A stretch of 20,000 bases of DNA, from contig PS015421.1 of NCBI GenBank assembly GCA_048213135.1, positions 57,669 through 77,668 on the forward strand, in the 5' to 3' direction. This DNA comes from Reclinomonas americana ATCC 50394. Taxonomy: Eukaryota. Made by a program: the position numbers and the translations under genes. Position 1 is the stretch's first letter, and each line of letters begins with the position of its first letter. The notes below the pieces were generated by a model, which had not been told where the DNA came from, ran no database searches, and saw only the letters and a list, made by a program, of their open reading frames with translations. This document shows, in pieces, positions 132-19,973 of the stretch.

Positions 132-3000
132 CGACACCGAGTATCGCAAGATCATTGCGGAGAAGGACCAGATGGTGTCGGCGTTGCACCAGTCGGTGGT
201 CGACTTGACGTCGGTGTTGCAGGATAAGGAGAGCACGATTGCGGAGCTGAAGAGCGGCTATCGCTCCATGCAGGACCTCATGTCACGACTCATGGTCTCT
301 TGTCATCGTCATACCCTCTCCTCCTGTGCTGTCGCTCACTCCTCTCTCTCTTTGTGTTGTGCCAGACCGAGTCACAATCACAGGCACTGGCTGTGGCGCA
401 TCTGCAGGCCGCCGTGCACGGATCGGCAGTGGCGACAGCAGCGTCGGCGTCTGCGGCACCGGCATCACCACGCAAGCAGCAATCGCCGGCTCGATCGCAG
501 AGTTTTGTAAATGTGCGCTCGTTGACGCCGGCGGCCGCGGCCGCGGCGACGCCACCACCGACAGGAAGCCTGTCTCCACGGTTGCGTTCGTCGAGCCGTG
601 GTGGTGCGGACACGCCAGAGTCGCCGCGGGTCGGCAGCTTGCGGGATCTGTCGGCCGCCGGTATGGCACCGGCGGCGGCGGCGGCACCGACAGCGCTCTC
701 GCCCGTCTCGGGAGCCATTGCGATTGCGCCTGCGGCGAATCGGCGCAGCAGCTTGGCCGAGGTGGCACCGCGCACGGCGTCTCCGAAAAAGGATCACGCC
801 CGCGCCGAGGTATAGAGTGTGCTGTGTGTAGACTCATTTGCAATCGCTGTTGCTGACCACTCATTGCATTCAACAGGCCCAATACCCACCTCGCAAAGCG
901 CCCACCGCCGAAGCTCTCGTGCCCGCTGCTCCCTCCCCGTCACCTGGCGTTGGTGCCGAGGCCGCCACAGTGTCGTCGTTGCCGAGTCCGCGCCGACGTG
1001 GCAGTGGCGTTGCGGTGGCTGTTTCACCGACTGCGGCCGCCGCACTCAGTGCCTCGCAGTCGGCACCGCCGTCCATGGCTCTGGGTGCAGTTGTTGCGGC
1101 TGCCCCCGCAAGTGCCGCGCCGGTGCCACATCCAATCGTACCGACTCTGTCGCTGGCGTCGGCCGGTCTGTCGAGCCCCGTGAGCAACGCCAAGCATTCG
1201 CCTCGCATGTCACCACGCAGCATCTCGTCGGGCCGGCCACCAGTCGGTCTCACGGGCGGCAGTTCACCCCGCCACTTTGCCACTCAGTCGTCGTCGGTGG
1301 CGGTGGCGGTGGCAGTGGCGCCCGGCTCACCCGCTCCCGAGGTGACGGAGACCGTGTCGGACAGCGAGGCCCCGTTGAGTGCTGGCCGCCGACCACCACT
1401 CGGCACCTCGGCCGACCGTCCACGCACACCACCTGCACAGCCGTCTGCGTCGCCCACGGTTTCCCCATTACGGCCGCGCACCGGCACTCCCATGCGTTCC
1501 AATCCCGAAACTCGTCGCAATATCATTAATCAGCTACACTCCAAAATCCCCCGCAAGACCGGCAGTCCGGTGCCGCCTGCAAGTGGCGACAGCGGCAGTG
1601 GCCTGACCAGTGTTCACACCGCCCCTCCAGGCCTGCTGCTGGCACAAATAAGAGAGGCGCAGGCGCAGGATGAGTCGCTGGCGGCGTCACCAGGTGAGCG
1701 GGTACTCTCGAAAGGTCCCACATATCCAGTTGTGTGGTCTCACGCGCCTTTCTTTTCCCCCGCGACAGACTTGCTACGTGTGAGTCGAATAAGTGGTGGA
1801 GGTGGTGCTGATGACGATGCGTCGGCGGGTGGCTCCGATCGGAGAGCATCGCTCAATTCGTCGTTTGAGAGCTCACTGGCAGACGATGGGCGGTCCTCGG
1901 CGCTCATGTCACTGCACTCTCCTCGGAGGAATTCAGCGCGCGACATTGTGGCCAGCTCCATGGAGGAGCGGCGCGATCCGTCGCCTGAACTCGCCATTCC
2001 GCAAGTGTCGAGCCTGTTGCCACCGTCGGCCGAGCTGCAGCGTCGCTTGTCACATCAGAAATCGTTGCGTGCTGTGCGCACTTGTTGTGTTGTCGCTCAC
2101 ATGTCTCCTCACTTGTGACACACCAGACCAACGAGCGCCGACTATACGGTTTTGTGCCCGACGTGTGGCCGCAAGGTTCCACTCGAGCGTTTTGAGAAGC
2201 ACGAGCAAATGTGCCAGAAGAACGATTCAGCGGTGCGTGTGTGCTATTGGGGTGATGCGCAATAAGTGGTAATGGCGTCATCCTCAATCATCGTGCAGAA
2301 ACGTGCCGTGTACGGCTCGGTAAGTTCGATTCCTAGTCCGGGCTCGGCCACCGGACCCGCCACCCCGCAGTCCAGCAGTGCGGCGAGCAGCGCCAGCAGT
2401 TCATCGTCAACAACACCAAGTGGCAATCCACCTGGGCCCACCTCCGCGTCCAGTCAGCCAGCCACATTACCGCGGCCCAAGGCGCACAGCAATGGTCGAA
2501 CGGCGTCTGTGGGTGGCGCGGCTGCTACGGGCGACGGTCGCTCACCGCGCGCCTCACCACCCAGTAGTCCACCCACCACAGCATCGAGGCAGGCAAGGCA
2601 GAGCCCGCCACCTGCCAACGGGCGTGCTTCGGCGCGACCATTGTCGTTTAGTGGCAGCTCGCTGGCGGCCAGCAAGAACATGCCTGCGGATTCTGTTGTG
2701 CGGAGCAGCGGGTCAACCTCACCCACTGGATTTACACGTGCTGCTGGTGCCTCTGCATCGGCACTGCCGATGCCGGCCTCCTCAGCTCGTTCACCAACAC
2801 GGCAACCCTCGTCGGCGACCGGCATTCCTTCACTGTTGCGCTTTGGGAGTCTGTGTGTTTGATCCTCTCTGCCTTGTTTTTGCTGACGAGGACGCCGACA
2901 TTGCAGCAGATCGGCCCAACAACGACTCGTCCGGTCATCGCGCCCCGTAAGTGCGTCGGGCAGCGGTGCGCCAGCCACCAACGGTAGCAGTAGCCGGTAG
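132..3000 (+). CDS. 5'-truncated protein with an N-terminal coiled coil, long Ser/Pro/Ala-rich disordered regions and one C2HC zinc finger
   Basis: GT-AG spliced exons 132-294, 366-809, 877-1693, 1769-2063, 2127-2232, 2299-2834, 2907-3000 (TAG). The first exon reads DTEYRKIIAEKDQMVSALHQSVVDLTSVLQDKESTIAELKSG (heptad-like). Exon 2127-2232 reads TVLCPTCGRKVPLERFEKHEQMC, matching the CxxC-x11-H-x3-C pattern of zf-C2HC_2. The last intron is less certain; unspliced, the stop is at 2862. Confidence 0.75.
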
Positions 3001-3122
3001 CAGTGGGTGGTGGTGGTGGAGGAGGCGGATGTACGAAAAATACCCAAATGAGAATCGCGCACGATAGGCTCCACGAATGCAAGCTGAATCCAGTCATTTA
3101 TGATAGATTTCGGTTCCAGCCG

Positions 3123-5218
3123 TCACACCTTGTAGTACGCTCCCATTCCCTGCGTATCGTCGTGATCTACCTTGGCTTGGGCCATGGACCGCTTACTGCC
3201 CGACCGTCGCCGACGCCGGCACCACCACTTATCCCAACATGATGCCGAGATCTGCTGCACGTCGCCGCTGTCGCCGCGGTGCAACAGGGAGGTGGCCGAG
3301 TGCGTGCGACCCGAGGCCGTGTCGTCAAACGGGTCGCCGCCCGACTCGCCGTCATCGTCTCGCGTGAAGCTGTGCGGGCAGATGCGACGGCCGATTCCAC
3401 GCACCAAATCGGTGAAGAGAGTGCGGCCGACTCGTCGCACACCGCGTCGGCTGCGATGCAAACCGCGACCCTCGCTCTTCAGCTGGTACACCAAGCGGTT
3501 GCAGTGTTGCGAGAGGCGGAAGCGCGGATACAGATCGCTCTGCATGCTCACGTAGACGTGCCGCTGAGCCTCGTCAAACGTGCGCGCATGTGTCCGTTTC
3601 TGCGCAAAGTCTTCCACAATGGCCGATCGCAGCACGTCTGCCCATGGGACGCCAGTGAGCAACTCGAGTCGCTGGTGACAGATGATGTGGTGTGCACACG
3701 CGTACCTGAAATGTTGATCTCTCGCATCGACCCGTCGGCAATGAACCTGTCGAAAATGCTCTGCGCCAGCCCCTCCCACGCCGGTGTGCCCTCTCTTCGG
3801 TGTAATTCGTCGACCTGCACATACACACACTCCCAGCATGAATCGACGAGCTGCAATGTGGGTGTGCGGCACCGCAGACGCAACAGCCAAGTAAAACATC
3901 AAGTTCTCCTCGGCATACGACTCCTCGAGGTAGGCCTCTGTGGACGCACACCCCGTGGTGAGAGAACACACATGAGAGAGAGAGAGAGAGAGTGAAAAGG
4001 AGAGAGAGAGCTAGAGGGAGAGAGACGAATGGAGAGAGAGAGAGGAGGGGTGCTCGTGTCGTGGAGGGAGAAAACACGCACCGAAATAAAAGAGACCGAG
4101 TGGGTCGCGAATGAGGTCCTTGACTTGCTTTGGTAATACCTGCACGGAGATGAGTGAGTGTGTTACTTGCAGGCGAGAAAGCCATGCAGCAGACCGTGGT
4201 CTCTGTGAGCCCAAACACCAGAGCAATTGCCAGACCTGCGACAATCGGAGGGTGAGGACAAGGACCTGAGCTTACCCTTCTTGTCTCTTTCTACTCCTCC
4301 TCCCTTCCATGTCCCCTCCTCTTTCTCTCCTTGTGCTATCCCCTCTTATCGTCCTTCTTCCGCTTTTCTCTCCCCTCTGTCACAATACGAAGGACATATA
4401 GCACTCACCGCTGAGGCCCTTCGAGACAACGGCAAACCACACCAACACGTTGGTGGCCGACGTGGCATCGACCGAGTCCATCAGGCGGTACGCCAGTGGG
4501 AACACCCAAAACGCCACAAAGAGCACAATGTACCTGTTCCACAGGTGAGCACCACGACACGGACAAACGTGACTGGCCACCACGCCGCCACGCAACACAA
4601 TGGTCTGCTTCTTGGCGCGGATGGTGGCCAGGTACACGGATGGCGGAATGGAGCCGAGATTGGGTGAGCCGCGGAGAATCATGGACATGCGCATGGCCGG
4701 CTGATCGCCGTTGCGTCGCGAGGCCACTGCAGCAGAATGATTGTGAAAATAAGCAACACAAGGCAATAAGGAATAGATACACTGCTGGAGCACGCAACGT
4801 GAGGTGCGGTTCGCGGCGCCATCGAGAATGTGCTGCTCAAAACCGTCAGAAGCAAGAACAAGGGAGATGAGTCGAAGAGGGCGGCTTTTGATACTCACCG
4901 AGCGGACCATCATCCACGACGCTTCGGTGGAGTTGCGCGGTTGTTCGGTTCGGGCTGCAGTGGTGGCGGGGGCTCGAGACGCCTCGCCTCGCGGCGTCGT
5001 GACCATCTCGGACATCTCCACTGAGCGGTCGACGGCCAAGCGTGGCGTTGCGACAGGTGTCGCCGGCGCCGTCGGCGGCAGCAGCACCACGGTTGGGGGC
5101 GCAAATGTCACGGTGGCCTCGCGCCTCGGCGCCGCCGGTGATGTGGGGATGGAGGAGCTGGGATCGGTGGGACGCGGTGACATCATGGGCGACTCTGCCA
5201 CGGCTCCAGTCGACAGTG
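3123..5218 (-). CDS. C-terminal half of a 7TM-RGS protein (end of ICL3, TM6, TM7, RGS domain, C-tail)
   Basis: Exons 5218-4899, 4832-4799, 4726-4597, 4533-4409, 4235-4195, 4139-4082, 3937-3885, 3814-3706, 3637-3123. TM6 is AKKQTIVYIVLFVAFWVFPLAYRL and TM7 is VLVWFAVVSKGLSGLAIALVFGLT. RGS motifs: LIRDPLGLFYFEAYLEESYAEENLMFYLAVDE, AQSIFDRFIADGSMREINIS, FDEAQRHVYVSMQSDLYPRF. Confidence 0.88.
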
Positions 5219-5224
5219 CTGCGG

Positions 5225-5416
5225 GTGAGAGGGGGAAGGAGAAAGAGAGGGGGAAGGAGAGGGAGAGGGAGAGGGAGAGGGAGAGAAGAAGGGGAGGGGG
5301 AGGGAGGGGGAGAGGGAGAGGGAGAGGGAGAGGGAGAGGGAGAGGGAGAGGGAGAGGAGAGGAGAGGAGAGGAGAGGAGATGAGAGGAGAGGAGAGGAGA
5401 GGAGATGAGAGGAGAG
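5225..5416. repeat. (GAGAGG)n/(GGAGA)n polypurine microsatellite abutting an assembly gap
   Basis: Seen directly; intronic polypyrimidine tract on the minus strand. Confidence 0.95.
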
Positions 5417-5436
5417 NNNNNNNNNNNNNNNNNNNN
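5417..5436. other. Assembly gap (20 N)
   Basis: N run. Confidence 1.
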
Positions 5437-7183
5437 ATGGTCGCGACTTGTGTTCCTCGCCTCCTTTGCATACACTCTGCAAGCGGTGTTTGCTGTGTGG
5501 CGAGGCGCAGGAGGGTAATGAGCACCTCCTCCTCTCTCATTTACTCACAAGCTCTCTCTCACACACATATGTCTGCGCAGGCAAAGTGGATGCGCGGAGG
5601 CTGGTGCGCTCGACCACTACTCGAGCTTGGCGGTCATCACGTGGCAGATTACGATGGTCATTGCGGTGTACATGAATGTCATTCGACAGGTCCGCTATCA
5701 CGACTCCTCCTTGTCTTCGGATCTGTGCTCATTGCGCCTTTCGTGTGCCTTGGTGTGTGTGTATGTGTGTGTGTGTGTGTGTGTGTGTTTGTAGGATAAG
5801 CGCGTGTCGTCGTTCCGCTGGCACATGTACTTCACGGTGCTGTGCTATGGCCTCCCGCTGGTGGTGGTCGTGGTGCTGTACATTGTGCAGCGGACGACTG
5901 GAATCCTTGTGTATGGCTCGCCGGCCTCGGTCGATGACTGGTGTGTGTGTGTGCCATCTGTTGCTGATCATGCGTGTCTATGCGCTCTCTCACGTGTGAC
6001 ATGACGTAGGTGTTCCATTGGCAACGACAGCGCTGTGTTGCACATTTTCGGCGTGCTTATCTACACTGGCGTTGGCGAGGTCTTTACGCATTCCTCCGCC
6101 ATGCGTTTGTGGATGCTTGTCTATCTCACGGTGCGCTCTTCTTTGCGCACGCAGGTTGTCTACGTTGTCGTGTGGATTGCTCTGGCTCGCTCGGCGTCAC
6201 GCGCCAAGTCCATGATTATGAAGGTGAGTGAGTGAGAGAGAGAGAGAGAAAGAGAGTGTGTGTGTGTGTGTGTGAAGACGTGCCCATCAGCCTTCTTCTC
6301 ACCGCACCAACTCACCCACGCTGACAACACGCAGTTTGTGACCCGTAATCGCGAGTCCATGGACGCCATTGAAACTCGCAGCGATCTCGAAATGCTCCGA
6401 GTACGTCGCTCCTCCTCCCTCTCTCTCTCTCTCCTCCCCCTTACTCTCATCATCCCTCTCCACCGCAGAACGACGACACGGGAAGTCTCTTTAGCGGCGC
6501 GCAAGATGGCGACGAGGACGAGGAGGAGGGGGGCGGGGAGGAGGACGTGGGTGCAGGGAAAGGTGCACCGTCCGCTGCCGGCTACGTCGGGGCACCGCGC
6601 GGAGGCTCCATTGCGTCGGGTGCCTTGCCCATGACACCTGTGGCGGCGGGTTTCGGCTTGGCCACCTCCGACGTCCCTCGAGATTTCCTCACCGTGCCCG
6701 GCAATCGCCTGAGCTCGACACCGATTGCGATCCCACAGACGGCGCCCGGTGGACGGGCCAATTCGTTTGATCACGCACTCGCTGCGGACTCTGCGTCGGT
6801 CAACAGCCACGCACTCCAGATGCCGGCGGCGTCACTCCCACACGATGCACCCGTGCGCCCCATGTCGACCCGCCGTATTCTACGATCGCCGGAGCAAATC
6901 ATGCAAGAGAAACGCGCCTCGCATCGACGCAGCCGTGCCGTTCGCATCGACGAGCGGCGCATGACGTTGCGACAGGAGACAGTGGAGTTTCTGCGTGCCC
7001 TCCAGCCGCAAGATGACACGCTGTTCGAGGACATGCTGTGGAGGCAGTTGCGATCGCTCGTGTTGAGGGATGCAGTGTGATCAGCCGCATTCGTCGCTCA
7101 TACTCTTGGTGCATGCAGATCTCGCTACTTTCGCCCGGCTGACACCATGCAAGCGCTCCTGGTTGCCGCACTGGAACCTGTTG
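5437..7183 (+). CDS. N-terminal/middle part of a cAMP-receptor-like GPCR (TM2-TM5 and start of a long ICL3); probably the same gene as 3123-5218
   Basis: Exons 5437-5514, 5581-5689, 5795-5940, 6010-6079, 6155-6223, 6335-6400, 6469-7046, 7119-7183. Translation: WSRLVFLASFAYTLQAVFAVW..GCAEAGALDHYSSLAVITWQITMVIAVYMNV..MYFTVLCYGLPLVVVVVLYIV..VYG..DWCSIG..LHIFGVLIYTGVGEVVYVVVWIAL. The TM3 Cys, the TM4 GLP and the ECL2 WC are typical of CAR/secretin-like receptors. Confidence 0.82.
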
Positions 7184-7287
7184 GTGCGTCCATGTCTAGT
7201 GTCCAATCCTGTCGATCATGCCCTCACGCCCCCCTCTCGTATCTTTTTCCTCTCCTCTCCCTCTCTTCCTCCTTTCACCCTCTCGTT

Positions 7288-7431
7288 TCTCCTCTCGTCT
7301 CCTCTCCTCTCGTCTCCTCTCCTCTCCTCTCCTCTCCTCTCCTCTCCTCTCCTCTCGTCTCGTCTCGTCTCCTCTCCTCTCCTCTCCTCTCCTCTCCTCT
7401 CCTCTCCTCTCCTCTCCTCTCCTCTCCTCTC
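7288..7431. repeat. (CCTCT)n pentanucleotide microsatellite abutting an assembly gap
   Basis: Seen directly; reverse complement of the repeat unit at ~5350-5416. Confidence 0.95.
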
Positions 7432-7740
7432 NNNNNNNNNNNNNNNNNNNNNNNNNNNNNNNNNNNNNNNNNNNNNNNNNNNNNNNNNNNNNNNNNNNNN
7501 NNNNNNNNNNNNNNNNNNNNNNNNNNNNNNNNNNNNNNNNNNNNNNNNNNNNNNNNNNNNNNNNNNNNNNNNNNNNNNNNNNNNNNNNNNNNNNNNNNNN
7601 NNNNNNNNNNNNNNNNNNNNNNNNNNNNNNNNNNNNNNNNNNNNNNNNNNNNNNNNNNNNNNNNNNNNNNNNNNNNNNNNNNNNNNNNNNNNNNNNNNNN
7701 NNNNNNNNNNNNNNNNNNNNNNNNNNNNNNNNNNNNNNNN
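7432..7740. other. Assembly gap (309 N)
   Basis: N run. Confidence 1.
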
Positions 7741-7810
7741 TGCACACACAGACGCACTTTCTCTCTCTCCTGTCACTCTTTGTGAATTTTTGTCAGTCTC
7801 ACTCTTACAA

Positions 7811-8028
7811 ATGCCGAGAGGAGCACTTGTTGTTGTGTTGCTCGTTCTTGTGGTTGTGCAGTGTGTGTGTGCGCGGTCGTTGTTGCGCGGTGGTGTGGAG
7901 GAGCAGGAGGGTGAGTGCACACGTGAAGGAGAGTGAGAGAGAAAGTCCGAACATGTGAAGGAGAGGGAGGGAGAAGAGAGAGAGAGAGAGAGAGCGACTC
8001 GCAGGAGAAATAGGTGATACTTAACCTT

Positions 8029-8069
<41 letters not shown>

Positions 8070-8153
8070 CATACACATATACACTTGCACAGAGAGAGAG
8101 AAAGGAAGAGTCAAGACTACTCTCACTGTGAGAAAGCAGCTTGCAGGTCTATC

Positions 8154-8190
<37 letters not shown>

Positions 8191-11100
8191 GCACGCGCAC
8201 ACACACACAGAGAATCGGAGCAATCATGCATGCGTTCATCACGATCATTCTCAGTCTCTCCTCATTCTCTCCTTATACCTTGACTCTCACTCCCTCCTTC
8301 TCCCCTTAGCTCTCCCTTCTCTCTCTCGTTCACCTCTTCCGTGCTTCTCTCCCTCCCATTGCCTCTCCCTTCTCCCCGCTCCCTCCTTCCACCCTTTCCC
8401 CTCACCTGTCTCTCGTTCACCTCATCCTTGCTTCTCTCTCTCCCTCTCCCTCCATCGCTTCTCCCCTCACCTCCCTCCCCTTTCCCTTTCCCATTTAGCA
8501 TTCCTCGACGACCACTACCTGCACCACACTGAGGGCGCTGACGTGCGCGAGGCCAGTGTGTACGTGAGCGACAATGGACGCGGCTTTGTGGTCCGCGAGG
8601 GTCTCAATCAGAGCGCGCTGGCGTGGGGCTCGTTCCGCGACGAGATCCACAGCACTGGATGGGGCCGTCTGAGTGTCAGCACCAATGGAGACTTTTCGTG
8701 AGTCTCGTCGCGCACTCTCTCTCTCTCTTTGCCCTCTGGCCTGACGACTGCTTCTCCGTCGTGCTGCAGCAACGTGCAGCAAGCCGAGGGCGCCGGCTTC
8801 CTGGAGTCGTACTTCACGTCGCACCTCATGTACCTCATGCACCGCAACTACATGCGCGGTGCCTTCCCCAAGGGCATTCCCGACTACGTGCACAAGTTCC
8901 TGGAGAAGAACTTGGCGTGGTACGACTCGCAGGTCGCCGCCTCTCATTCACAAGCCGGTGAGCAAGCAGCTGTAGAGCGAGTGGCATCGTCCTTGCCCTT
9001 GTTTCATGATTTCTTTGCAGATGAGGCGGCGTTCTGGAAGGCTGCTGGCGTCGTGCGCGCGCAGATTCACGGTCTGGCGCTGGGCTACGCGGCCTATCAC
9101 GCTGCTGGACAGGTATCGTCTGCATGAATACGCATCGTGAGGTCATCATCTCTGCTGTTTGACACGAGGCTTCGCAGGCAATGACCGAGGCGGAGATCTA
9201 CGCCCTCTCGGCGCAATCCGACATTGAGGACATTGACAGCTACCTGGGTCCGCAGTCGGCTGGTCGCCGGCGGTCGCCCTTCCGCTCCAATGTTCCCGAG
9301 AACCTGCGCCTCACAGACTGCTCCGGCCTCGTGCGGGTACGCGGAGAGCAGGCGATCGGTGTACTTGTGTCCTTGCTCACTTTTTTTGTGCATCCACCCA
9401 GCTGCTGCCCGGCAACTCGAATGTGTTCATCGGGCACGCTACGTGGTGGTCGTATTACGGGATGCTTCGTATCTGGAAGTCGTACTCGTTTAACTTTGAC
9501 AAGCAACCGACGCGAGTGTTGCGTGCATTGCTCTGCCCCCTTTCGTGTGTGTGTGTGTGTGTGTGTATGTGTCTGCGGCATGTTGTTCATCGCTGCTTGT
9601 GTCACAGCGCATTCAGCTCGTACCCCGGATTTGTAATCTCCACGGACGACTTTTACACCACGGCCAAGTTGCGCAAACTCCTTGCCTCACNNNNNNNNNN
9701 NNNNNNNNNNNNNNNNNNNNNNNNNNNNNNNNNNNNNNNNNNNNNNNNNNNNNNNNNNNNNNNNNNNNNNNNNNNNNNNNNNNNNNNNNNNNNNNNNNNN
9801 NNNNNNNNNNNNNNNNNNNNNNNNNNNNNNNNNNNNNNNNNNNNNNNNNNNNNNNNNNNNNNNNNNNNNNNNNNNNNNNNNNNNNNNNNNNNNNNNNNNN
9901 NNNNNNNNNNNNNNNNNNNNNNNNNNNNNNNNNNNNNNNNNNNNNNNNNNNNNNNNNNNNNNNNNNNNNNNNNNNNNNNNNNNNNNNNNNNNNNNNNNNN
10001 NNNNNNNNNNNNNNNNNNNNNNNNNNNNNNNNNNNGCAAACAGACTGGTGCTGATCTTCACTGTGTCGTGCTATACAGCAAGCTCACCATCATCGAGACC
10101 ACCAATGACCTCTTCAACGACACGCTGATTCAGTACATTCAGCCGACCACCGTGCTCTGCTTTGCGCGCATGTACATTGCGAACCTGGTGGCCACGTTGC
10201 GTCCGTGGTGTCGTGTCGTGTGTCGTGTCGCACGCAGTTCTCGACAATTAACCGCTGGCTATCCTGCACGACAGCAATGGACAAGAGTGGGCACACTATT
10301 TTGGCATGCACAACTCGTTGCGTATCTTTCTTGGTCGTCCTCACACGCACCGGCAATACCTGACGCTGCCTTTCTTGACTATTTCATGTCGCTCCCTCTC
10401 CTTGCCTCTTTCCTCTCGTAGTGGAACCTACAACAACCAGGTGAGGTCGTTTTTCCTCGACAATCTCCCTGTTTTGCTATCGTCCTCTCTCACACACACA
10501 CGCACGCCTCGCTTCTGTTCTTCTCCGCAGTATATTGTGATGGATGGCAAGCGATTCCAGGCAGGCAGCCCACCCTCCAGTGGCTTCCTGTGGGTCCTCG
10601 AGCAGATTCCGGGCAAGGTGGTGCAGTTGCGTTGCAGGAGGAGGGGGCATGTCTGTATCTCCCTTGTTTTTGACTGCGTTCCTCTGACCGTCGCCCACTT
10701 TGCAGGCAAGATATGACGCCGTTCTTGGTGCAGCACGGCTACTTCCCCTCGTACAATGTTGCGGTCAGCGCAGAGATGCCCTTTTCGCGAGGTGATATTC
10801 TCAAACACACACACCACCCCCCCCCCCCCCTTCGTTCCTCTTTGTGCCTGCAGATCCCCTACTTCCAGGAGATTTACGATGACAGCGGGTGAGTCCATTG
10901 TTGGTGGAGAGCGCACGGATACAGAAGGAATCGTGCACAAAAGAGAAAGGAGAAATCAAATCACCACTTTCGTAGGTAGGTTACAAGTACTTTCTCCCTC
11001 CTTATGCCTCGTTCCTCGCCACCTTGGGTTAATGAGGGAAAGCGGGTAGAGCGACTACTTCATTCCTCGGGACTGCCTATTGGTGCCTCACTATCTCCGA

Positions 11101-12385
11101 TGCGCTGCTCGCTTCCCCCGCCGGTGTGTGTCTCTTCTCGCTGGATGCCCTTTCGGCCACTTCTATCCTTCTCCGGCTCTAATTCCGCACCACTCATGTC
11201 GCCACACACTCCCCCTCTCTGCCTCCTCTCTTTTCTCCCATGCTCCTCAATGCTCTTTTCGATGCCTGTTTGGCGAAAGCTGGCAACAGTAGTGGAGACT
11301 AGTTTACCAACAAACAGTCGCACTTCATGTCGGGCGTGCCCCGCCACTGCACGTACGAGCAGGAGCGTCGCGTGGAGAGTGCAGAAGTGGGAGGCGCACT
11401 CGCGCTACATGTGGTGACGCAGTAGAAGGAAGAGGAGATCATGCATCTCTTCATGAGAGAGAGAGAGACGGTTGTTCTCTTTGAGAAGGAGACTGTCTTG
11501 TGAGATAGAGTGATTCTCAGGTGAGAGATGTGACACGCATCTCTTTGTCAACAAGAGTGAATAGTGCTCTCAGAAAGAGACTCTTTTGCGCCAGTAGAAA
11601 AGTGAGATACCGGCAATGACCGGCAATGCCGCACTTTTTTTCTTTTCGTTGTTGTTTTCAGTCCCTCGTGGGAAGAATGGCGATCGAGTGGGTGATTGCC
11701 ATGGCTGACCACACTCTCGGTGTTGCTTGCGTGCAGGTACCCGGCCATGAAGGCCAAGTACGGCGACGAGTTTAGCTACGAGAAATGTCCGCGGGCACTT
11801 ATTTTTGCGCGCGACCACGCGGCCGTCGTCGACCGCCAGAGCTTCCGCGCCATCATGCGGTACAATGACTACACCAAGGTTTTGTGGAGGGGCACAGATG
11901 AAGGAGGGCCTCCAAGTGTTGTTGGTCCAAACTGAAAATAGTATTATCATCATTGTAGGATCCGCTGTCGGGCAACGATCCGCTGAATGCGGTGGCCTCG
12001 CGCGGTGACCTGATTGTGCGCTCCAAGGACGACAAGCCCGTGGCCTTTGGAGCGATTGACGCCAAGAGTTACGTTTCGCGTGGGAGGGTACGAGAGAAAC
12101 AGCAAAAGCCAGCCCGCAGAGATCGCCTTTCGGCAGTTTCAATTTGCTGTCGTTTGGTCGCTGGCTGCCACACTCACTGCCTGCACTCCTGCGTGTGTTG
12201 CGTTAGTTAACGACGCCGTAAGTTTGGCCTCGGGGCATCCGGTTGTGGACGTTATATCAGGGCCGACGCACGAGTCGCTGCCGGCATTTGCCTGGAAGGA
12301 ACGCGACGGCATTTTTATGGAGGTGCCGCATGAGGGGCAGCCGGAGGTGTTCAATTTTGACTGGGTGCAGGGTGTGATGGAGTGA
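7811..12385 (+). CDS. PLBD: Phospholipase B-like protein (PLBD1/PLBD2 family, Ntn hydrolase) with signal peptide
   Basis: 16 exons: 7811-7910, 8499-8697, 8770-8957, 9021-9112, 9178-9336, 9402-9517, 9608-9667, 10079-10195, 10275-10316, 10422-10440, 10531-10625, 10706-10757, 10854-10888, 11737-11878, 11959-12067, 12207-12385. Signal peptide MPRGALVVVLLVLVVVQCVCA. Family motifs: TGWGRL, AGFLES, DCSGLVR (nucleophile Cys), GHATW, FSSYPG..STDDFY, IETTN, NSGTYNNQY, EQIPG, SYNIPY, PRALIFARD, MRYNDY..DP, SRGDL, FGAIDAK, ISGPT, HEGQPEVFNF. Confidence 0.95.
7965..8497. repeat. Compound (GA)n/(CA)n/(CT)n microsatellites and polypyrimidine tract in PLBD intron 1
   Basis: Seen directly. Confidence 0.9.
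9691..10035. other. Assembly gap (345 N) inside a PLBD intron
   Basis: N run. Flanking exons join in frame as DDFYTTAN-KLTIIETTN, so no coding sequence appears to be missing. Confidence 0.95.
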
Positions 12386-14324
12386 GTGAAGGAGAAGGAG
12401 ACGAGGACGGCGATGCCCAAATGCGTAGCCGCGGGAATTGGTCGTCTTTCGCCAAGGTCCTCTGCAAACGTCAATATCAACGGCGGCGCCTGTATGCGCG
12501 CTGTGCACATATTCGAAACCGTTACCACACAGCAGCGCGAGAGAAGGGTGAGAAGCATCGCCTGCAGCGTCGATGTCCGTAGATGATGTTCGAACCGAAC
12601 AAGAGACGCACTCATTCTTCTTTGTTTCTAGCACCTCGCGCAAAGAAAAGATCCCTTCTCACCCCCCTCGGTGACGAGGCACGCACGACGCACACATGCG
12701 CCCACTGCTCAATCAAAACGCATCTGCGGTGCGTGTGAGAGAATTTCTCTTTTTTTCACTCCGCATCTCAACCAGTCATTGACAAATATGGGCAATGTGC
12801 ACGAATCACACACGCAACAGAGCGAAACACTATCCGCATATACGCTTGCCGCTATGCCTCCATGCTCCTCTCCGCATCTGCGCGCACGTGTGTGTCTTTG
12901 TGGTCGCAATTATTGTCCGAACATTCATTGAGGTAATTTATTTTCAAAGTGTGTCGGAGAGAGCAAGCAAACACCACTCGCTTCGCCGAGTGCCTTTTTG
13001 CGCAAAAACACAAACAAACAGAGGTGAGTGTGTGTTTGAAACGAAGAGGAGGCAGAGGCAGTGTGTGAGAGAGAGAGAGAGTGAGTGAGTGAGAGTGCAT
13101 GTAGATATAATCACCACATGCTGTTCTCGTGTTTGATTGCTGTGCGATATGTGCGATCGGTGTTGTGTGTGAGCGGCAAAGAGAGAGTTAATTACCAGAG
13201 CGCGCTCTCTCTCTCTCGCTCGCTCTTGTGCGGTGTGTGTGTGTGAGTGGGGGGTTGTGTGCATGCGCGCGTGTCAGGAAACAATGAGTGATTATCATCT
13301 CCGTGTCGCACAAGACGGTTTTTGTATCTCTCTCGTATCGTCCTTGCTATGTGTGTGTGTGTGTGAGAGTGTGTGTGCGTGTGTGTGTTGAAAGGGAGAA
13401 TGTAGGAGGTTACTTTTTTGTGCCCTCTCGAGAAACATCGGCGAAAACACGTACACGCGCAGAAACGACAGCGAATCCTGCATTTCAATCTTCTCTGCTC
13501 TCTCGTCGGCTCTCATGTGCGTGTGTGGCAGTGTGCACAGTGGTGTTAGAACATTCCGTCCGTTCCTCTCTACATGTTTGCATGTTTGTGTGGAAAGGGG
13601 AAGAGGCGCGTCGATTGCAAATTTGCCTTTTTTGGCAGCGCTGGTCTTTGAGTTGAAAGTTGAAATCTGTGTTTTGATTTTGTTTTTTCTTCAGCACACA
13701 CACGCGCACACACATCTATACACTTTCGCCTGTTTGCACGTTTCATTGCATTCTCGCGCGCTGCTGCCAGTGATTGCCAGCGCCCTTTTCGTTGATTATT
13801 TATTAGGACATACCGTTGAGGCTTGAGGGGCGCTGGTGCTTGCAATTGTCTTTGTAGTAGTCGTGCTGGGTGTGTGTGTGTGTATGTGTGAGTGAGTGAG
13901 TGGAGGCAGTTAGTGACTGATTTACGTCGTGTCCACTAGAAACCGCTAGATTCTTTTTTTCCTCTGTCGGCGACGATGGTGGTGTGAAAGCGAAAACAGT
14001 TGTAAATACACAATGAGGCGTCGCACTTGGCACATATGTGTGCACGAGCTTAATCGTTTGTGTGGAGGGGGAGGTATGGAGAGCGCAGAGTGTAAGCAGC
14101 AGCAGCGCGGAGTCGCCTGCAGCCCGTTGGGGACACGCCTCATTGGCATTTGTTCGCTCCTTTTTCTCTCTTTCCTTTTTTCTTTTCTTTCCTTCTGCGT
14201 GAGAGCACGCAGTGCCTGACAGAAAGAGTTGCCGCGACATGCATGCAATGTACAGTGTGTGTATGCATGACTGACACTCTCTCTATGCGCGCTGTGTGCA
14301 GTCCTTCTGGCCTGCAACACACAC

Positions 14325-16152
14325 ATGCAACACGTGGCGATGATGCCCCAACACCGCCACCTGTCTTCGTCGTCGACCACTTCGCTGACGTCGGTGGTCG
14401 TCTCCTCGCCTGTCTCCGCCTCCACCACTCCCACTCCACCTGCAACTGCGCCAGCGGCCGCCGGCAGTGGTGCAGAAGACGGCGCATCACCCTCATTGAC
14501 ATTTGTGCAAGAAACAGGTCGCCATCGGCGGACCAAGATTCGTTTCACCCCCGCGGAGCTGCAATACCTGACCCATTTCTACGACAATGTTGCGTAACAC
14601 CACCACTACACATCCTGCATCTTGCCTGTTGCATCGCGGGGATGACACGTGCTGTGCGCAACGTCTCTTCTGCTGCTGCTGCTGCACTTCATCTTGTCTC
14701 GAGATTCTCACAAATGCGAACACACCAGGTTTCACGCAAGCCAACTGTGCAGCAACTTGAGCAAGTGGCCAGTCGCCTTCCGCGCCAAATACCTGTACAC
14801 AACCTGCGCATCTACTTTCAGAACAAGCGGTAACTTTTTTTCGTGTCGCTGCTCTCCCCAGGACCTTGTTTCATACTAATTGAATATTCCCACACATCAG
14901 TGCGCAAGAGCAACGGATGTTGAGGCAATTGGCCGCCGAGACCGGCGGCAACTGTGTGGTTGCGAGCAGAAAGGCCGCAGCACCGTCCCGCTCCATGTCG
15001 CCGGCGTCGCCGAACGATGCAGCCGCCGACCACGACTGCTGCATTTCGTCGTCGCGGTCTTCGCCGGATTTGTTTCGCCTGGCTCCCACTGCAGCTGCAG
15101 CGGCGGCAGCAGCCGCGGCGGCCGCATTATTGTCACCGCCTCCACCACCACCGCCACCATCGTCGTCTACGAAAACGACCGTGAAGCAGCAGCAGCAACG
15201 ACAACCATTCCATCGGCTGCAGCAGTCGCCGCCGACTGCATCGCAGCCACCACTGGTGCTGAGTGGCGGCAAACTGAAACAGCAACAGCCGCAACGACAG
15301 CACCGGCCAGGCGATGTGGCTGCCGCCTCCGCTGCACCGAAGCGCGTAGACCCGAAACCCGTCGTCGATCTCTCCGACCTGGACGTGCTGGCCGGCGCCG
15401 CCATGTACATGTCCCCGAAACCGTCGCCGGCGATGACACCGACAGTGGCAGCGGTGACGAGGACAACGACACCACCAACAATAACGACGCCGACTGCGAC
15501 GCGCGCGCCAGTGCCCCTGCCTGTTCCCGCTCTCGCCCTCACCAAGCCAGCCCTCGCTGCCACCGCTGCCACTGCGGCGGCGCCAGTGGTCGACTCCATC
15601 GCCAAGACGTTGCTGGCGGCGACCAGCAAGCCGGCACCACCAGTAGCACTGACACGACGAGAGTCGCCGTTCTCGCTGCTCAACTTCCCACCAGTCGACG
15701 TGATGCCAGTTGTGCCAACCGCGCGTCACGTGTCGCTCCACGACGTAATCAACCCGCCATCGCCACTCCGACTGGCACCTCCTCCACCACTGTCGGCATC
15801 ATCGGCACCACCGCAGTCGGCAGCCGCGGCCCCTCGCGATCGGTTACCGCAAATTCGTGAGCGCGACGATCAGAGTCCGCCCACCAAGCGCCAAAAGACG
15901 GCGGCGAACCAGGTGCTGCGTGGTGGCATTGCGTGGATGCTGGACAATGACGATGAGGAGGAGAACAATGACGACAAGGGCGATGCCAGCGAGGAGTACG
16001 TGAGCGAGGGCAGCGACAGCCACAGTGCACCTGCACAGAGCGATCATCGATGTGCGCCTGTAAGAGCCTCGTGGTCCCCGCTCTCTCGAGCGCAGGCCGA
16101 GCGCGACCAGCTGCTGGTGCGCAAGCGGCTGCGCGATCAGATGGAAAGGTGA
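14325..16152 (+). CDS. Atypical homeodomain transcription factor with long Ala/Pro/Gln-rich C-terminal region
   Basis: Exons 14325-14588, 14729-14829, 14901-16152 give RRTKIRFTPAELQYLTHFYDNVSRKPTVQQLEQVASRLPRQIPVHNLRIYFQNKRAQEQR, with homeodomain residues F8, L13, L16, P26 and FQNKR. The start codon is uncertain (14325 or 14340, or an upstream exon). Confidence 0.85.
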
Positions 16153-16372
16153 CGAGCGCGTAGATCGATCGCCTCTTCCTCCCCCTAAACGGCTGCCCCT
16201 ACTTTCTTTGTCTCGCCACCATAACCTCAAAGTCTCCCCCAATCTCTGTATCTTACGATCTGTATACCACAATGTCTGTCGCTCGCTGTCTACCGCCAAT
16301 AATAAATCGCTGGGTGGCGATACTGTCTTGCCAAACTACGTCATGTGTGTGTACACAAAGTGTTGTACATTC

Positions 16373-17982
16373 TCACGACGACGACGACGACGACGCCCCT
16401 TCCTCGCTGCCACCGAAATTGAGAAGGCGAGGCTGGAAAATGCGCAGAAACTCTTCGGTGTTGACGCGCTGCCGACAACGAGTGAGCAACGCAGCGAGAG
16501 CCACTTGCCAATGCAGTGAAGGCACTCACCATCTTGAGATCGACCTCGCCGGCACCGAGGTAGAAGAACGGCAACGCGGCCACTGCCTCCGACAGGATGA
16601 CCGGAATGCGACTGCGCAAGCCGACAGGGCACACTGCGACAAGCAGCAATGATCAACACGAGCTCTGGGGAGGAAGAATACATGACTGCTCTGCAGCACA
16701 CCTGCGTTGCGAATGTATCCCGAAAGCGTGGCTGCAGTCTGTGCAAGTCGTGATGAGGAGACAAGTCGCGCGACGGTAAAAAAACAGCTGTCTCTTGCTC
16801 TTGTATTCTCTTCTGCTTGCTCTCTACTTTAATCTCCGTCGCTTTCTCAGTCTCACGCATCTCTCTTCCTTTCTTTCTCTTGTACTCGCTCTTGCTCTCA
16901 TTATCATGTACATCCCGTGCCTCTTGTGCATTGCTCTCGTTCTCTTCTGCTTGCTCTCTACTCTCATGTCCGTTGCTTTCTCACTCTCGCACATCTCTCT
17001 TCCTTTCTTCGTTCTCTTGTTCTCGCCCTCGCTCTCGTTTCTCTTGTGCATCGCCCTGTACTTTCTTGTCCATCGTTTTCTCACTCTCTCGCTCTCTCTC
17101 TCTCTCGCACATCTCTCTTCCCTTCCTCTTTCTCGCAGTCTCTCTCATCGTGCATCGCTGTCTCTTGCGCTGCCAACCTCCTCCGCCACCAGCCGGAAGG
17201 TGAAGCCACTCTTGCCGCGATTGTTGAGCTGCCCAAAGTGCCGCGCCATCCTATCCGTGTCCATCTGTCGAGCACAGTGAGCGCACAATGACCGTGCTGC
17301 GGGCGGAACAACAACAGCACACCTTGCCACTGTACTGCACCACAACCAAAATGAACGGCGGATCACGCTCCTCGTCGTCGGACTTGCGCAGCACATTGCC
17401 ACTGCTGTCGACCAATCGCGTGTTGTGCATCACCACCGACTTGCACAAATAGTGCACCGTGGGAGCGCCTGCGGGGCGATCGATCAGCGTAAGGAACAAG
17501 CACAGAAACTGACAGCGAAACGCACCGAGCAAACGAGCTCGTTCCTCCAATGGTCGATCGTAATAGTCGGCAGGCACACGATAGAACGCCAGACTACGCA
17601 CTCACGCCCGTGCATATGAGCACGCGCGATTAACAAGAAGACAGACTCTGTCGAGCATGATGCAACTGTCGACGCAATCCGCATGCCTCGCACGCAGCGA
17701 CCAGATCGCCTCCGCATCCATCGCGCACCGATCCGCGGACGACACTCAGTGACACAAACGAAGGCGCCACGTGTGCTCCCTCATCGTCTTCAGCATGCAC
17801 AACAACCTCTTTCTTCTCTTCCTCTTCCTCGTTGGTGTGCACAATGTCATCAGCAATCACGGAGGCCTGCAGTCGCCGAGCGCGCGCAAGTAACGCGTCC
17901 ACACTGTGTATGAGTGCTGAGTGAGACAAGGCGTGAGGCACCACGGAGCAGTGAGCAAAGACCGATGCTCCAAGTCGTGCAT
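16373..17982 (-). CDS. YbaK/prolyl-tRNA synthetase-associated (tRNA editing) domain protein, eukaryotic plant/protist type
   Basis: Exons 17982-17963, 17903-17667, 17593-17526, 17468-17323, 17264-17178, 16738-16702, 16633-16530, 16468-16373. Motifs: FYRVPADYYDRPLEERARLLGAPTVHYLCKSVVMHNT, FILVVVQY, FTFRLVAEETAATLSGYIRNAVCPVGL, IPVILSEAV, FFYLGAGEVDLKM. Confidence 0.88.
16790..17150. repeat. Degenerate ~120-135 bp tandem repeat (about 3 copies) in a YbaK intron
   Basis: CATCTCTCTTCC recurs at ~16858, ~16992 and ~17110; CTTCTGCTTGCTCTCTACT at ~16810 and ~16944; CTCTTGTGCAT at 16921 and 17041. Confidence 0.7.
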
Positions 17983-18018
17983 GTGAGAACGAATGTCCTT
18001 CTATGTCCTCCAACGAGA
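17983..18018. promoter_or_regulatory. Putative minimal bidirectional promoter between the YbaK and SDR start codons
   Basis: 36 bp between divergent ATGs; contains ATGTCCT twice (17993, 18003), 10 bp apart. Confidence 0.5.
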
Positions 18019-19034
18019 ATGGCTGCAGCTGCGGGTGCCAGTGCTGCTCTCGCACTCGATCAAGGCGTTGTGCTGGTCACTGGTGCAGCATCGGGCATTG
18101 GTCGCGCACTGGCCGCACATGCTGCCACTGGTCTGCTCTTGCCTCTCTCTCTCTTCCGCCCTCTCTCTCACTCACTGACTCCACAGTGGAGCACTGCAAG
18201 GCACTGGTGCTTGCCGATCGCGACAGCGAGGGAGTGGCCGCCGTGCAACGCGAGCTGAGTGAGAGCAGCACGACGATTGTCAGCAGTGTAGTGTGCGACC
18301 TGTGCGTGTCCGACGATGTGCGTCGCATGGCGGAGCACGTGCAGCACGTGTGCAGTGAGCACAGTGATGGAGCGCTGTCGGCCATGTTCCTCAATGCCGG
18401 CATTGCGGGTCGATCGGCCGGCACTGCGCCGACGTGGATGACCAGTGAGGAGGAGTGGGCGGGGGTGCTGGGCGTGAATCTGTTGGCAGCCACGCGTTGT
18501 GTGCGACTGCTGTTGCCGGCGATGCTGCAGGCGAAACGGCGAGCGCATGTGGTGTGCACGTGTTCGCATTCGTCCGTGTCGACTGGCTTGCCCCTGGCCG
18601 CGCCTTACTCGGCCTCCAAGCACGCCATTCTGTCGTTTGTGGAGTCGCTGTCGCGCGAGTTGGAGCTGACGGGCCATGGGGCGCTGGTGGGCGTGTCGGC
18701 GTTGATGCCCGACTGGGTGGCCAGCACGGCGCTGTTGCGCGATCAGCTGCAGAATCCGCGGTTTCCGCCCGACATGGCCGCCGCCATTCAGAGTGGCTCC
18801 ATTCCGGCTGCCGAGTGTGCCCGGCTCGCCTTTGAGGGCATGCACGAGCGACGCGTGTACATTTTCACGCAGCCGGCCACCACACGGCGCGAGTTGCGCG
18901 CGCGGGTCGATGCGCTGCTGCAAGCGCTCGACGAGGCCGCCAACAAGTCCGCGCCGACACCGCCAGACAAGCCCCGTGATCGAGGAGACGGTGGCGGCGA
19001 CGATCAAGGCCCCACCACAACAGTCGAGGAGTGA
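18019..19034 (+). CDS. Short-chain dehydrogenase/reductase (classical SDR)
   Basis: Exons 18019-18130 and 18187-19034. It has the Rossmann motif VLVTGAASGIG, the NAG motif (FLNAGI), WAGVLGVNL and the catalytic YSASK. Confidence 0.92.
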
Positions 19035-19098
19035 ACGCAAGGAGTTACTAAACAAAGTCACTTCTGTACTACTAAAACAATAGGAGTCTCTTTTTTTT

Positions 19099-19973
19099 CT
19101 ACTTGTCACGCCGACCGACTCGCCGGTACGACGGCCCTGCACGACCACTACGAGAGCCACCATCACCACCACCACCACCACCGGCAGTCATGTCAATCAC
19201 TGCCGTCGGCTCCTGCGGCCATTGCACCTCGGCAGTGGACAAAGACGCCTTTGCCTTCCCCTTTGCACCCTCGTCACCGTCGTCGTCGTCGTCATCGGAA
19301 AAGTCATTGGTTTCCAAGCGCGCCAGGTACGACTTGGGCGGCGCCACCAGCGTCGGCTGCAGCGACGTCGGGAAGCGTTCCTCGACTACGCGACACCAGT
19401 GAGTCACACACACACACGCACGCAGCAACACGGGGGGAGTGCGCACGAAACATGTCTCCGATCGCTTGGCAGCTGTCGCATCGACGCGATTGCAGCGAAT
19501 GATAAACAGCACCGTCTCCATGAGCAGACCGAGCACTGCACCAGCCAAGCCGACCATGGCCGACTGCGATGACTGAGTGTCACCAGTCGTCGCGCATGTA
19601 TGTAAAGGAATAACTCGTTACCTTGGTGCTATCGCCTCCAAAGATGCCGCTAAACGCCACCGAAAAGGCAATGTAGAGGCCGCCCATCATCACAATGGTG
19701 TTGAGGCCGACGCCCACCTGCTCTCGCGTCTGCACGTAGCCCTCGCGCTCGCGCTCCACCTTCTCCTCGTGCGTCGTCACATTGGAGACCAGTCGGTTGT
19801 ACTCTCGCTGCTCCACCAGTCGTCGCAGCTTGTCTGTGCGCTGGGCATAGTCTGGCGACTGTGCACGCGAGTGAGAGAGAGAGGAGAAGAGAGAGGAAAG
19901 AGAAGAGAGAGAGAGAGCGCGCAACTGGTGTGTACTGTGCGCGCACTGGGCGACGCACAAGCAGTGTTGTTCC
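19099..19973 (-). CDS. VMA12: VMA12/TMEM199-like ER V-ATPase assembly factor (5' part outside the window)
   Basis: Exons 19973-19926, 19858-19622, 19563-19452, 19385-19099. Translation GTTLLVRRP..SPDYAQRTDKLRRLVEQREYNRLVSNV..EQVGVGLNTIVMMGGLYIAF..MVGLAGAVLGLLMETVLFIIR shows the EY motif, two TM helices and the E-x-x-L-F-I-I-R pattern recognised from Vma12. Confidence 0.8.

Follow-up and report, generated by a model that had tools for sequence, protein, structure and literature searches.

The introns of the DNA stretch considered here begin in two different ways, and the question which it raises is whether a single reader of the donor, U1 small nuclear RNA (snRNA), can serve both. The window, i.e., the whole 20-kb stretch analysed (20,000 nucleotides (nt) of contig PS015421.1 of Reclinomonas americana ATCC 50394), belongs to a nuclear scaffold and has a GC content of about 58%. 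An initial annotation had claimed that the class of a donor, or 5′ splice site, is almost completely predicted by the last exonic base: donors with G at this position (-1G) were followed by variable intronic bases, and nearly all donors lacking it began with GTTGCG. Introns were placed without the use of donor motifs by reading-frame closure, and in a phospholipase-B-like gene (gene D) also by homology ranking. The curated set comprises 45 GT-AG introns in eight genes; 14 introns, all in the phospholipase-B-like gene, were ranked by homology, and 31 of the 45 were placed by frame closure alone.

Two donor classes and the last exonic base

G precedes the intron in 28 of the 45 donors, and none of these 28 has the form GTTNCG. 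The 17 donors lacking -1G include 15 of the GTTNCG form (13 GTTGCG, GTTACG at 12068 and GTTTCG at 19451) and two exceptions, A/GTACGT at 6401 and C/GTGAGT at 8698 (the slash marks the exon–intron boundary). Hereafter, the 15 GTTNCG introns are referred to as class 2, and the other 30 (28 with -1G plus the two exceptions) as class 1. The -1 base and the intronic part of the donor are clearly interdependent (Fisher exact test over the 45 introns, p = 3.9e-10), and the 14 homology-validated introns alone demonstrate the same split, with GTTNCG in 0/6 donors with -1G and 7/8 donors without it (p = 0.0047). The division described in the initial annotation is therefore retained, together with the absence of GTTGCG-like donors after -1G and with the same two exceptions at the same positions. 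Its counts have changed, from 50 introns, 31 of them with -1G, and 17 GTTGCG-like donors among 19 without -1G, to the values given above. The degenerate hexamers that it listed after -1G were all found: GTCTCT (295), GTATAG (810), GTCTTT (6080), GTCTGC (4194 and 18131), GTCCGC (5690), GTGTGT (5941) and GTTTTG (11879). As a description, the existence of two donor classes linked to the -1 base is solid and can be accepted with high confidence.

Class 2 donors are nearly uniform over seven intronic positions, with T3, C5 and G6 in 15/15, G4 in 13/15 and T7 in 11/15. Class 1 donors are conserved mainly at -1 (G in 28/30) and +5 (G in 23/30), with +3 occupied by G (16), A (7), C (5) or T (2), +4 by A (12), T (10), C (7) or G (1), and +6 most often by T (15) or C (10). 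Two -1G donors begin with GTT, namely GTTTTG at 11879 and GTTGGC at 17177, and both lack C at +5 and G at +6. The hexamer GTTGCG occurs 32 times on the two strands of the window, including 13 sense-strand donors and nine sense-strand exonic copies. Only one of these nine is followed by T at +7. It lies at position 581, is preceded by G and is the sole sense exonic GTTGCGT in the curated exons. The presence of G before an unspliced copy may indicate that -1G inactivates the motif, or it may be due to chance (n = 1).

The genes and their introns are listed below, with lower-case letters for the last three exonic bases; ORF stands for open reading frame.

132-3000 (+), gene A, C2HC zinc finger (Pfam zf-C2HC_2)
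295-365 (+), intron, atg/GTCTCT, -1G class, phase 0; ORF closure
581-587 (+), exonic, apparently unspliced G/GTTGCGTT (GTTGCGT); frame closes without an intron here
810-876 (+), intron, gag/GTATAG, -1G class, phase 0; ORF closure
1694-1768 (+), intron, cag/GTGAGC, -1G class, phase 1; ORF closure
2064-2126 (+), intron, atc/GTTGCGT, GTTNCG class, phase 2; zinc finger intact once spliced
2233-2298 (+), intron, gcg/GTGCGT, -1G class, phase 0; ORF closure
2835-2906 (+), intron, act/GTTGCGC, GTTNCG class, phase 2; ORF closure
5186-3123 (-), gene B, RGS domain, ORF of 451 amino acids
4836-4898 (-), intron, tcg/GTGAGT, -1G class, phase 0; ATG-to-stop ORF
4727-4798 (-), intron, cac/GTTGCGT, GTTNCG class, phase 1; ATG-to-stop ORF
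4534-4596 (-), intron, tgt/GTTGCGT, GTTNCG class, phase 2; ATG-to-stop ORF
4236-4408 (-), intron, gcg/GTGAGT, -1G class, phase 1; ATG-to-stop ORF
4140-4194 (-), intron, acg/GTCTGC, -1G class, phase 0; ATG-to-stop ORF
3938-4081 (-), intron, tcg/GTGCGT, -1G class, phase 1; acceptor 3936 would break the frame
3815-3884 (-), intron, gct/GTTGCGT, GTTNCG class, phase 0; within the RGS domain
3638-3705 (-), intron, cag/GTACGC, -1G class, phase 1; ATG-to-stop ORF
5581-7080 (+), gene C, membrane-protein-like, 5′ end lost in a gap
5690-5794 (+), intron, cag/GTCCGC, -1G class; frame closure
5941-6009 (+), intron, ctg/GTGTGT, -1G class; frame closure
6080-6154 (+), candidate intron, gag/GTCTTT; uncertain, ORF open with or without it
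6224-6334 (+), intron, aag/GTGAGT; 6228-6290 is an alternative
6401-6468 (+), intron, cga/GTACGT; exception (no -1G, not GTTNCG)
7811-12385 (+), gene D, phospholipase-B-like
7911-8498 (+), intron 1, agg/GTGAGT, after the signal-peptide exon; ORF closure
8698-8769 (+), intron, ttc/GTGAGT; exception (no -1G, canonical strong intronic part); homology rank 1 of 9
8958-9020 (+), intron, ccg/GTGAGC, -1G class; homology rank 1 of 16, margin 1.6 bits
9113-9177 (+), intron, cag/GTATCG, -1G class; homology rank 1 of 16, acceptor tie with 9168
9337-9401 (+), intron, cgg/GTACGC, -1G class; homology rank 1 of 8
9518-9607 (+), intron, agt/GTTGCGT, GTTNCG class, phase 2; homology rank 1 of 26
9668-10078 (+), intron across an N gap, caa/GTTGCGC, GTTNCG class, phase 2; homology rank 1 of 5
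10196-10274 (+), intron, cac/GTTGCGT, GTTNCG class, phase 2; homology rank 1 of 15
10317-10421 (+), intron, ctc/GTTGCGT, GTTNCG class, phase 2; homology rank 1 of 2
10441-10530 (+), intron, cag/GTGAGG, -1G class; homology rank 1 of 21
10626-10705 (+), intron, gca/GTTGCGT, GTTNCG class, phase 2; homology rank 1 of 13
10758-10853 (+), intron, aat/GTTGCGG, GTTNCG class, phase 0; homology rank 1 of 14
10889-11736 (+), intron of 848 nt, cgg/GTGAGT, -1G class; homology rank 1 of 2
11879-11958 (+), intron, aag/GTTTTG, -1G class; homology rank 1 of 15
12068-12206 (+), last intron, aga/GTTACGT, GTTNCG class; homology rank 1 of 29
14325-16152 (+), gene E, homeodomain
14589-14728 (+), homeobox intron, aat/GTTGCGT, GTTNCG class, phase 0; ATG-to-stop ORF, homeodomain continuity
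14830-14900 (+), homeobox intron, gcg/GTAACT, -1G class; ATG-to-stop ORF
~17600-16373 (-), gene F, YbaK-like (weak match)
17469-17525 (-), intron, tcg/GTGCGT, -1G class; ORF closure to stop
17265-17322 (-), intron, aag/GTGTGC, -1G class; ORF closure
16739-17177 (-), intron of 439 nt, gag/GTTGGC, -1G class; acceptor 16732 would break the frame
16634-16701 (-), intron, cag/GTGTGC, -1G class; ORF closure
16469-16529 (-), intron, atg/GTGAGT, -1G class; ORF closure
18019-19034 (+), gene G, short-chain dehydrogenase (Pfam adh_short)
18131-18186 (+), intron, ctg/GTCTGC, -1G class; ATG-to-stop ORF, adh_short continuity
20000-19099 (-), gene H, Vma12-like
19859-19925 (-), intron, cca/GTTGCGC, GTTNCG class, phase 0; frame closure
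19573-19621 (-), intron, aag/GTAACG, -1G class; acceptor 19564 is an in-frame alternative
19386-19451 (-), intron, cat/GTTTCGT, GTTNCG class, phase 1; frame closure

The meaning of the missing -1G depends on the background against which it is judged. In the curated exons, GT dinucleotides that are not donors are preceded by G in 25% of cases, and exonic GTT in 14 of 103 (13.6%). The 28/30 of class 1 differ from the 25% background with a binomial p of 4e-15; -1G in this class is close to obligatory and strongly selected. For class 2, the value of 0/15 gives p = 0.11 at the rate of 13.6%, and p = 0.013 is obtained only with the rate of 25%; the -1 bases of this class (T in seven, C in four and A in four introns) are like those of the NGTT background. 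The possibility that class 2 actively avoids -1G was considered and discarded, the deficit not being significant against that background. Since the absence of -1G in class 2 matches the GTT background, the data show dispensability and not avoidance. The initial annotation had proposed that -1G is dispensable in the GTTGCG class, and the 15 introns, none of which carries it, agree with this. It had also proposed two near-exclusive modes of recognition. The two sharply separated classes and the near-obligatory -1G of class 1 support this proposal; its element of mutual exclusion is not supported, because 0/15 fits the background.

Pairing with U1

The complementarity of the donors to U1 was evaluated with the human U1 5′ end as given in PMC4856993. 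Class 1 donors form stable duplexes (RNAduplex, any register, mean of -7.19 kcal/mol) and are well separated from 631 exonic non-donor GT sites (mean of -2.74 kcal/mol), with an area under the curve (AUC) of 0.907. Class 2 donors reach a mean of only -1.29 kcal/mol and an AUC of 0.25; they pair more weakly than the exonic decoys (Mann–Whitney p = 0.0009).

Registers other than the canonical one have to be weighed here. Shifted and bulged registers of U1 on the donor were described by Roca and Krainer (2009), Roca et al. (2012) and Tan et al. (2016), and are established experimentally in human cells according to the account in PMC4856993. Canonical U1, together with U6, might read class 2 donors shifted by one nucleotide, or with an extra U at +2/+3 bulged; the usual contacts would be kept by +1G in the shift and by the GU in the bulge, and G6 and T7 would replace +5G and +6U. 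The initial annotation had favoured the shift, with the first intronic G taking the role of -1G. The mean pair count of class 2 does rise, from 4.3 in the canonical register to 6.2 in the shifted register and 6.6 with the U at +3 bulged, and T3, G4, G6 and T7 each find a partner. The resemblance to the sites described in PMC4856993 extends to the GUU start, the usual G-U pair lying one position inward and the needlessness of -1G. In a bulged register, -1G would still contribute a pair, so that the value of 0/15 is easier to reconcile with a shift, but the -1 distribution matches the background and does not discriminate between the models.

The stability of the duplex speaks against these registers. 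The pairs of class 2 are interrupted by two mismatches, and the predicted helix is weaker than that of the decoys, whereas the human sites in PMC4856993 are characterised by a long unbroken helix. The invariant C at +5 (15/15) faces U1 position 5 as a mismatch in the shifted register. At the equivalent position of class 1, +4, A or T is preferred, C being present in 7/30 donors and A in 12/30, and donors of the GTTGAGT type make up 0/15 of class 2. As +5C is invariant in class 2 and in the minority at the class 1 equivalent, class 2 is not a shifted copy of class 1. In addition, the human registers are rare and, as far as PMC4856993 reports, serve tens of sites (68 predicted for the +2/+3 bulge) and not a third of the introns. 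The shifted register is therefore poorly supported beyond its pair count, and we consider recognition of class 2 by canonical U1 in a shifted or bulged register doubtful, although it is the alternative that survives best.

A single U1 with a diverged 5′ end, e.g., at positions 5-6, could make G/GTGCGT the perfect site and GTTGCGT its shifted version. All 16 variants of these two positions were compared. The textbook UU is the best variant for separating class 1 from decoys and near the worst for class 2. With GC at positions 5-6, class 2 donors reach -6.8 kcal/mol through a contiguous helix from T3 to T7 plus G1, and it suits this variant that +3G is the commonest +3 base of class 1 and that CG occupies +4/+5 in 7/30 of its donors. 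However, the AUC of class 1 then drops to 0.70 vs. 0.91, class 2 is separated weakly (0.66), and donors of the GTGAG type mismatch the variant and yet form the largest class 1 group (10/30). None of the 16 variants serves both classes. To our knowledge, the 5′ end of U1 is almost invariant among eukaryotes, which also counts against a diverged U1, and this explanation appears improbable. Hence, class 1 looks best explained by textbook U1, and class 2 looks to fit no register and no single U1 of the kind tested.

A possible second reader of the donor

The explanation which we prefer is that two readers of the donor operate side by side. Class 1, about two thirds of the introns, is anchored in the exon, with -1G plus a loose version of the usual consensus (G or A at +3, G at +5, T at +6), and would be read by U1. 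Class 2, about one third, is anchored in the intron by the heptamer G1 T2 T3 G4 C5 G6 T7, and its -1 base simply follows coding composition. The heptamer would be read by a second partner, and the textbook U1 5′ end would not recognise it, whatever the register. The most likely partner would be the 5′ region of an snRNA that is complementary to GUUGCGU; this could be a variant U1 or part of a diverged U11/U6atac-like pair, and it would pass the intron on to the branch-site and acceptor machinery shared with class 1.

The class of an intron may be decided by coding constraint. Phase 2 was found, in a post hoc comparison, in 8/15 class 2 introns vs. 4/30 class 1 introns (p = 0.0099), and phase 0 in 4/15 vs. 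17/30. The last exonic base of a phase-2 intron is codon position 2, and the frequencies of G at codon positions 1, 2 and 3 are 0.36, 0.20 and 0.38. Where the codon offers no G at the exon end, as in phase 2, an intron would survive only with a self-sufficient heptamer; the scarcity of G at codon position 2, combined with such a heptamer, would account for the surplus of phase-2 introns in class 2.

That a second donor reader exists in the form of such an snRNA stretch is suggested tentatively, at somewhat short of even odds. The complete reading, i.e., a second reader of 5′ splice sites beside U1, whether this is a variant U1 or a minor-type (U11/U6atac-like) system that has been transformed and has massively expanded, with the class set by the supply of exon-end G, is assigned a rough probability of 0.3.

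Several points weigh against a second reader. The second partner is one that we infer purely from the donors, and the window yielded no Rfam matches. The data come from one 20-kb window with 45 introns, most of them placed by frame closure, and the phase comparison involves 12 phase-2 introns, 7 of these in one gene. The human U1 5′ end used for the pairing may differ from that of the organism, and RNAduplex ignores pseudouridines and proteins. The rise in pair count in shifted and bulged registers leaves room for a non-canonical U1 register stabilised by protein. Finally, a separate minor-type spliceosome would normally call for a distinct branch motif, and class 2 shows none.

A sequence-specific protein binding UUGCGU just inside the intron, and recruiting or bypassing U1, is another conceivable reader. 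In its favour, the motif is short, invariant and non-complementary to textbook U1. No candidate protein is at hand, and a fixed distance to the cleavage site, together with five near-invariant positions, is more typical of RNA–RNA pairing, so we regard a protein reader as a long shot.

The 3′ parts of the two classes are alike. All 45 introns are GT-AG, and, as is characteristic of U2-type introns, YTNAY is found 10-40 nt before the 3′ end in 14/15 class 2 and 26/30 class 1 introns. The more specific CT[CG]AC occurs in 8/15 and 19/30 at a median distance to the 3′ end of 17.5 and 21 nt, respectively. The pyrimidine content near the 3′ end is 0.63 in class 2 vs. 0.66 in class 1, and CAG acceptors make up 12/15 vs. 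25/30. Neither a class-specific branch motif nor a fixed branch distance was found for class 2 among its 15 introns.

Introner-like elements are mobile intron families known in some algae and fungi. If class 2 consisted of relics of one such family, GTTGCGT would be its conserved end and the -1 base would come from the insertion site. The uniform 5′ end, which such elements share with class 2, and the differences from class 1 in phase and -1 base would be in accordance with this. However, the class 2 introns show no shared internal sequence beyond the donor: local alignments score 9.25 on average within class 2, vs. 8.86 between the classes and 8.21 among the class 1 introns. Terminal repeats, inverted or direct, are absent from class 2, only 1/15 introns contains the reverse complement of its own hexamer, and lengths and composition resemble those of class 1. 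The common 3′ features and the lack of likeness beyond the donor favour a single 3′ machinery and disfavour a recent mobile family; the introner family was rejected as very improbable.

Dependencies between -1G and intronic positions are classical (Burge and Karlin; Carmel et al. 2004) and are summarised in PMC8283771. The compensation described there runs in the same direction, a weak intronic part being accompanied by near-invariant -1G and a missing -1G by a strong intronic part. As presented in that source, it is graded around one +5G consensus, whereas the distribution here is bimodal, and the compensating motif is a different heptamer with C, never G, at +5. The two classes are separated much more sharply than in the known -1G trade-off, and textbook U1 does not account for the separation.

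The minor-intron expansion of Physarum polycephalum (bioRxiv 10.1101/2020.10.12.336362) is the closest precedent for an abundant second donor class of high information content, and, from what is presented there, also for the co-evolution of snRNA and motif and for a large second class of introns. Class 2 resembles U12-type introns, as described in that preprint, in the extended near-invariant donor, in the lack of need for an exonic G and in the bias against phase 0; U12-type introns of Physarum are reported to be in phase 0 in 26% vs. 39%. A bias against phase 0 together with the absence of a -1G preference, which characterises U12-type introns, is found in class 2. The donors themselves differ ([GA]TATCCTT in U12-type introns vs. 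GTTGCGT), all 15 class 2 introns are GT-AG, and a branch motif of their own at a fixed short distance, typical of U12-type introns, is absent from these 15. The share of class 2, about one third, is also above any reported. A literal motif search retrieved only primers and unrelated matches, and no account in print of donors of the GTTGCGT class; descriptions given only as logos or in supplements would escape such a search.

The contact between the U1 5′ end and the donor is among the most conserved RNA–RNA contacts in eukaryotes. If a third of GT-AG introns pair with it worse than random GT sites do, then either a second reader exists or a non-canonical register is stabilised beyond precedent. 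A second reader, if real, would amount to a parallel donor code on the scale of the major one. Such a genome would offer a natural system for testing whether -1G acts through U1, through U5 or through the two together, in what way splice signals are moulded by coding constraint, as in the phase-2 excess, and how a second intron class can spread. Gene finders trained on a single donor model would overlook or misplace about one third of the introns in this genome, and the final intron of the phospholipase-B-like gene illustrates how easily this happens.

Gene models and controls against hand-picking

The gene inventory was obtained with Pfam searches of stop-free frames and with our own parsing, and both strands were examined. 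For the phospholipase-B-like gene, a protein search with two of its exons gave no match, and homologues were taken from a search of representative proteins. The closest of them (34-42% identity) come from Cavenderia, Ploeotia, Nematostelium, a choanoflagellate, animals and other records. A profile of 21 full-length homologues was used to score all GT-AG pairs compatible with an open frame. The donor/acceptor pair of the model ranks first for 14/14 tested introns with margins of 1.6-47 bits, against 8-26 alternatives for five introns, 2-29 for eight and five for the intron that spans a gap. There is a single acceptor tie, with an identical donor in both pairs. The spliced product of 567 amino acids aligns with homologues from end to end (residues 5-562, E = 1e-116).

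In the same gene, the initial annotation had probably counted donors at 12088 and 12197, and homology replaces both with the one at 12068. The intron 12068-12206 is the best of 397 paths with one or two introns. G/GTACGA at 12088 was ruled out by homology as a donor, and T/GTTGCGTT at 12197 is placed by it at the 3′ end of the intron. This intron begins with A/GTTACGTT and ends with ...GTTGCGTTAG, and a near-copy of the donor heptamer (12197-12204) stands right before the acceptor; a motif-driven reading would therefore call a false donor there.

The other genes were closed by reading frame. Gene B runs from ATG to stop with 8 introns, gene A closes with 6, gene E with 2, gene G with 1 and gene H with 3. 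Gene F closes with 5 introns from 17598 on and gene C with 4 or 5; the first intron of gene D was closed from the ATG at 7811. Frame closure leaves in-frame alternatives, with a mean of 3.7 frame-compatible donors per intron and only 3 introns with a single candidate. The -1G donor at 5515 (G/GTAATG), next to a gap, and the 5′ intron of gene F at ~17600 (-) were omitted from the count.

Two controls address the hand-picking of donors. The first was a parser based only on codon and intron composition, which skipped the first six intron bases and saw nothing of the donor motif except GT; a parser based on codon bias alone had been rejected, as it ran genes together or missed most introns. The composition parser called 34 introns, 20 of them with a curated donor (13 -1G donors, 5 GTTNCG donors and both exceptions) and one more at the omitted donor 5515. 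In its 13 other donors, -1G occurs in 3/13, the background rate. According to homology, it is wrong in 5 phospholipase-B-like introns, and it was hence used only as a motif-blind control. The second was a two-class expectation–maximisation (EM) procedure run over all frame-compatible donors, which recovers the motifs G/GTG.G and GTTGCGT. It picks the curated donor in 35/45 introns, including all 15 GTTNCG donors, and homology contradicts 2 of its 10 departures.

The idea that intron calling itself made the association, through the choice of donors that look like G/GT or GTTGCG, could appeal to the frame-closure introns with their alternatives, to the optional intron at 6080 and to the ambiguous donor at 6224/6228, but it is hardly credible given the same split in the homology-ranked introns, the results of both controls and the six genes whose frames extend, with no internal stop, from the start codon or the edge of the window to the stop codon.

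The optional intron of gene C, 6080-6154 (G/GTCTTT), is 75 nt long, in frame and free of stops, and has a CTCAC branch and a CAG end; both its spliced and retained forms encode an open membrane-like segment. In the same gene, the donors at 6224 and at 6228 (tga/GTGAGT, 6228-6290) are both frame-compatible. At the 5′ end of gene F (17530-17730, -), an in-frame TGA at ~17603 lies inside C/GTGAGT. More than 60 frame-compatible combinations of start and intron are available there, none with a convincing donor of either class. A metagenome scan with the exon of the short-chain dehydrogenase gene (gene G) found one distant locus (L001, 41% identity), and an atlas search retrieved only dehydrogenase clusters of a generic kind.

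Three N gaps interrupt the window (5417-5436, 7432-7740 and 9691-10035). Microsatellites, long and of purine or pyrimidine type, at 5227-5416, 7248-7431, 8030-8077 and 3974-4044 adjoin gaps and also occupy long introns as well as upstream regions; they include a GAGAGG-type array, (TCCTC)36 and (CA)24. The assembly gaps were probably caused by these microsatellites. In genes B (5416-5187, -), D (7741-7810, +) and E (14140-14324, +), a long pyrimidine tract leads to an AG that lies 15-35 nt before the start codon. Such sites may be acceptors of introns in the 5′ untranslated region, with donors in gaps or upstream, or else trans-splicing acceptors. The intron 10889-11736 of the phospholipase-B-like gene is about 10 times the usual length (median of ~70 nt), and the segment 11303-11421 inside it was scored as coding-like by the composition parser.

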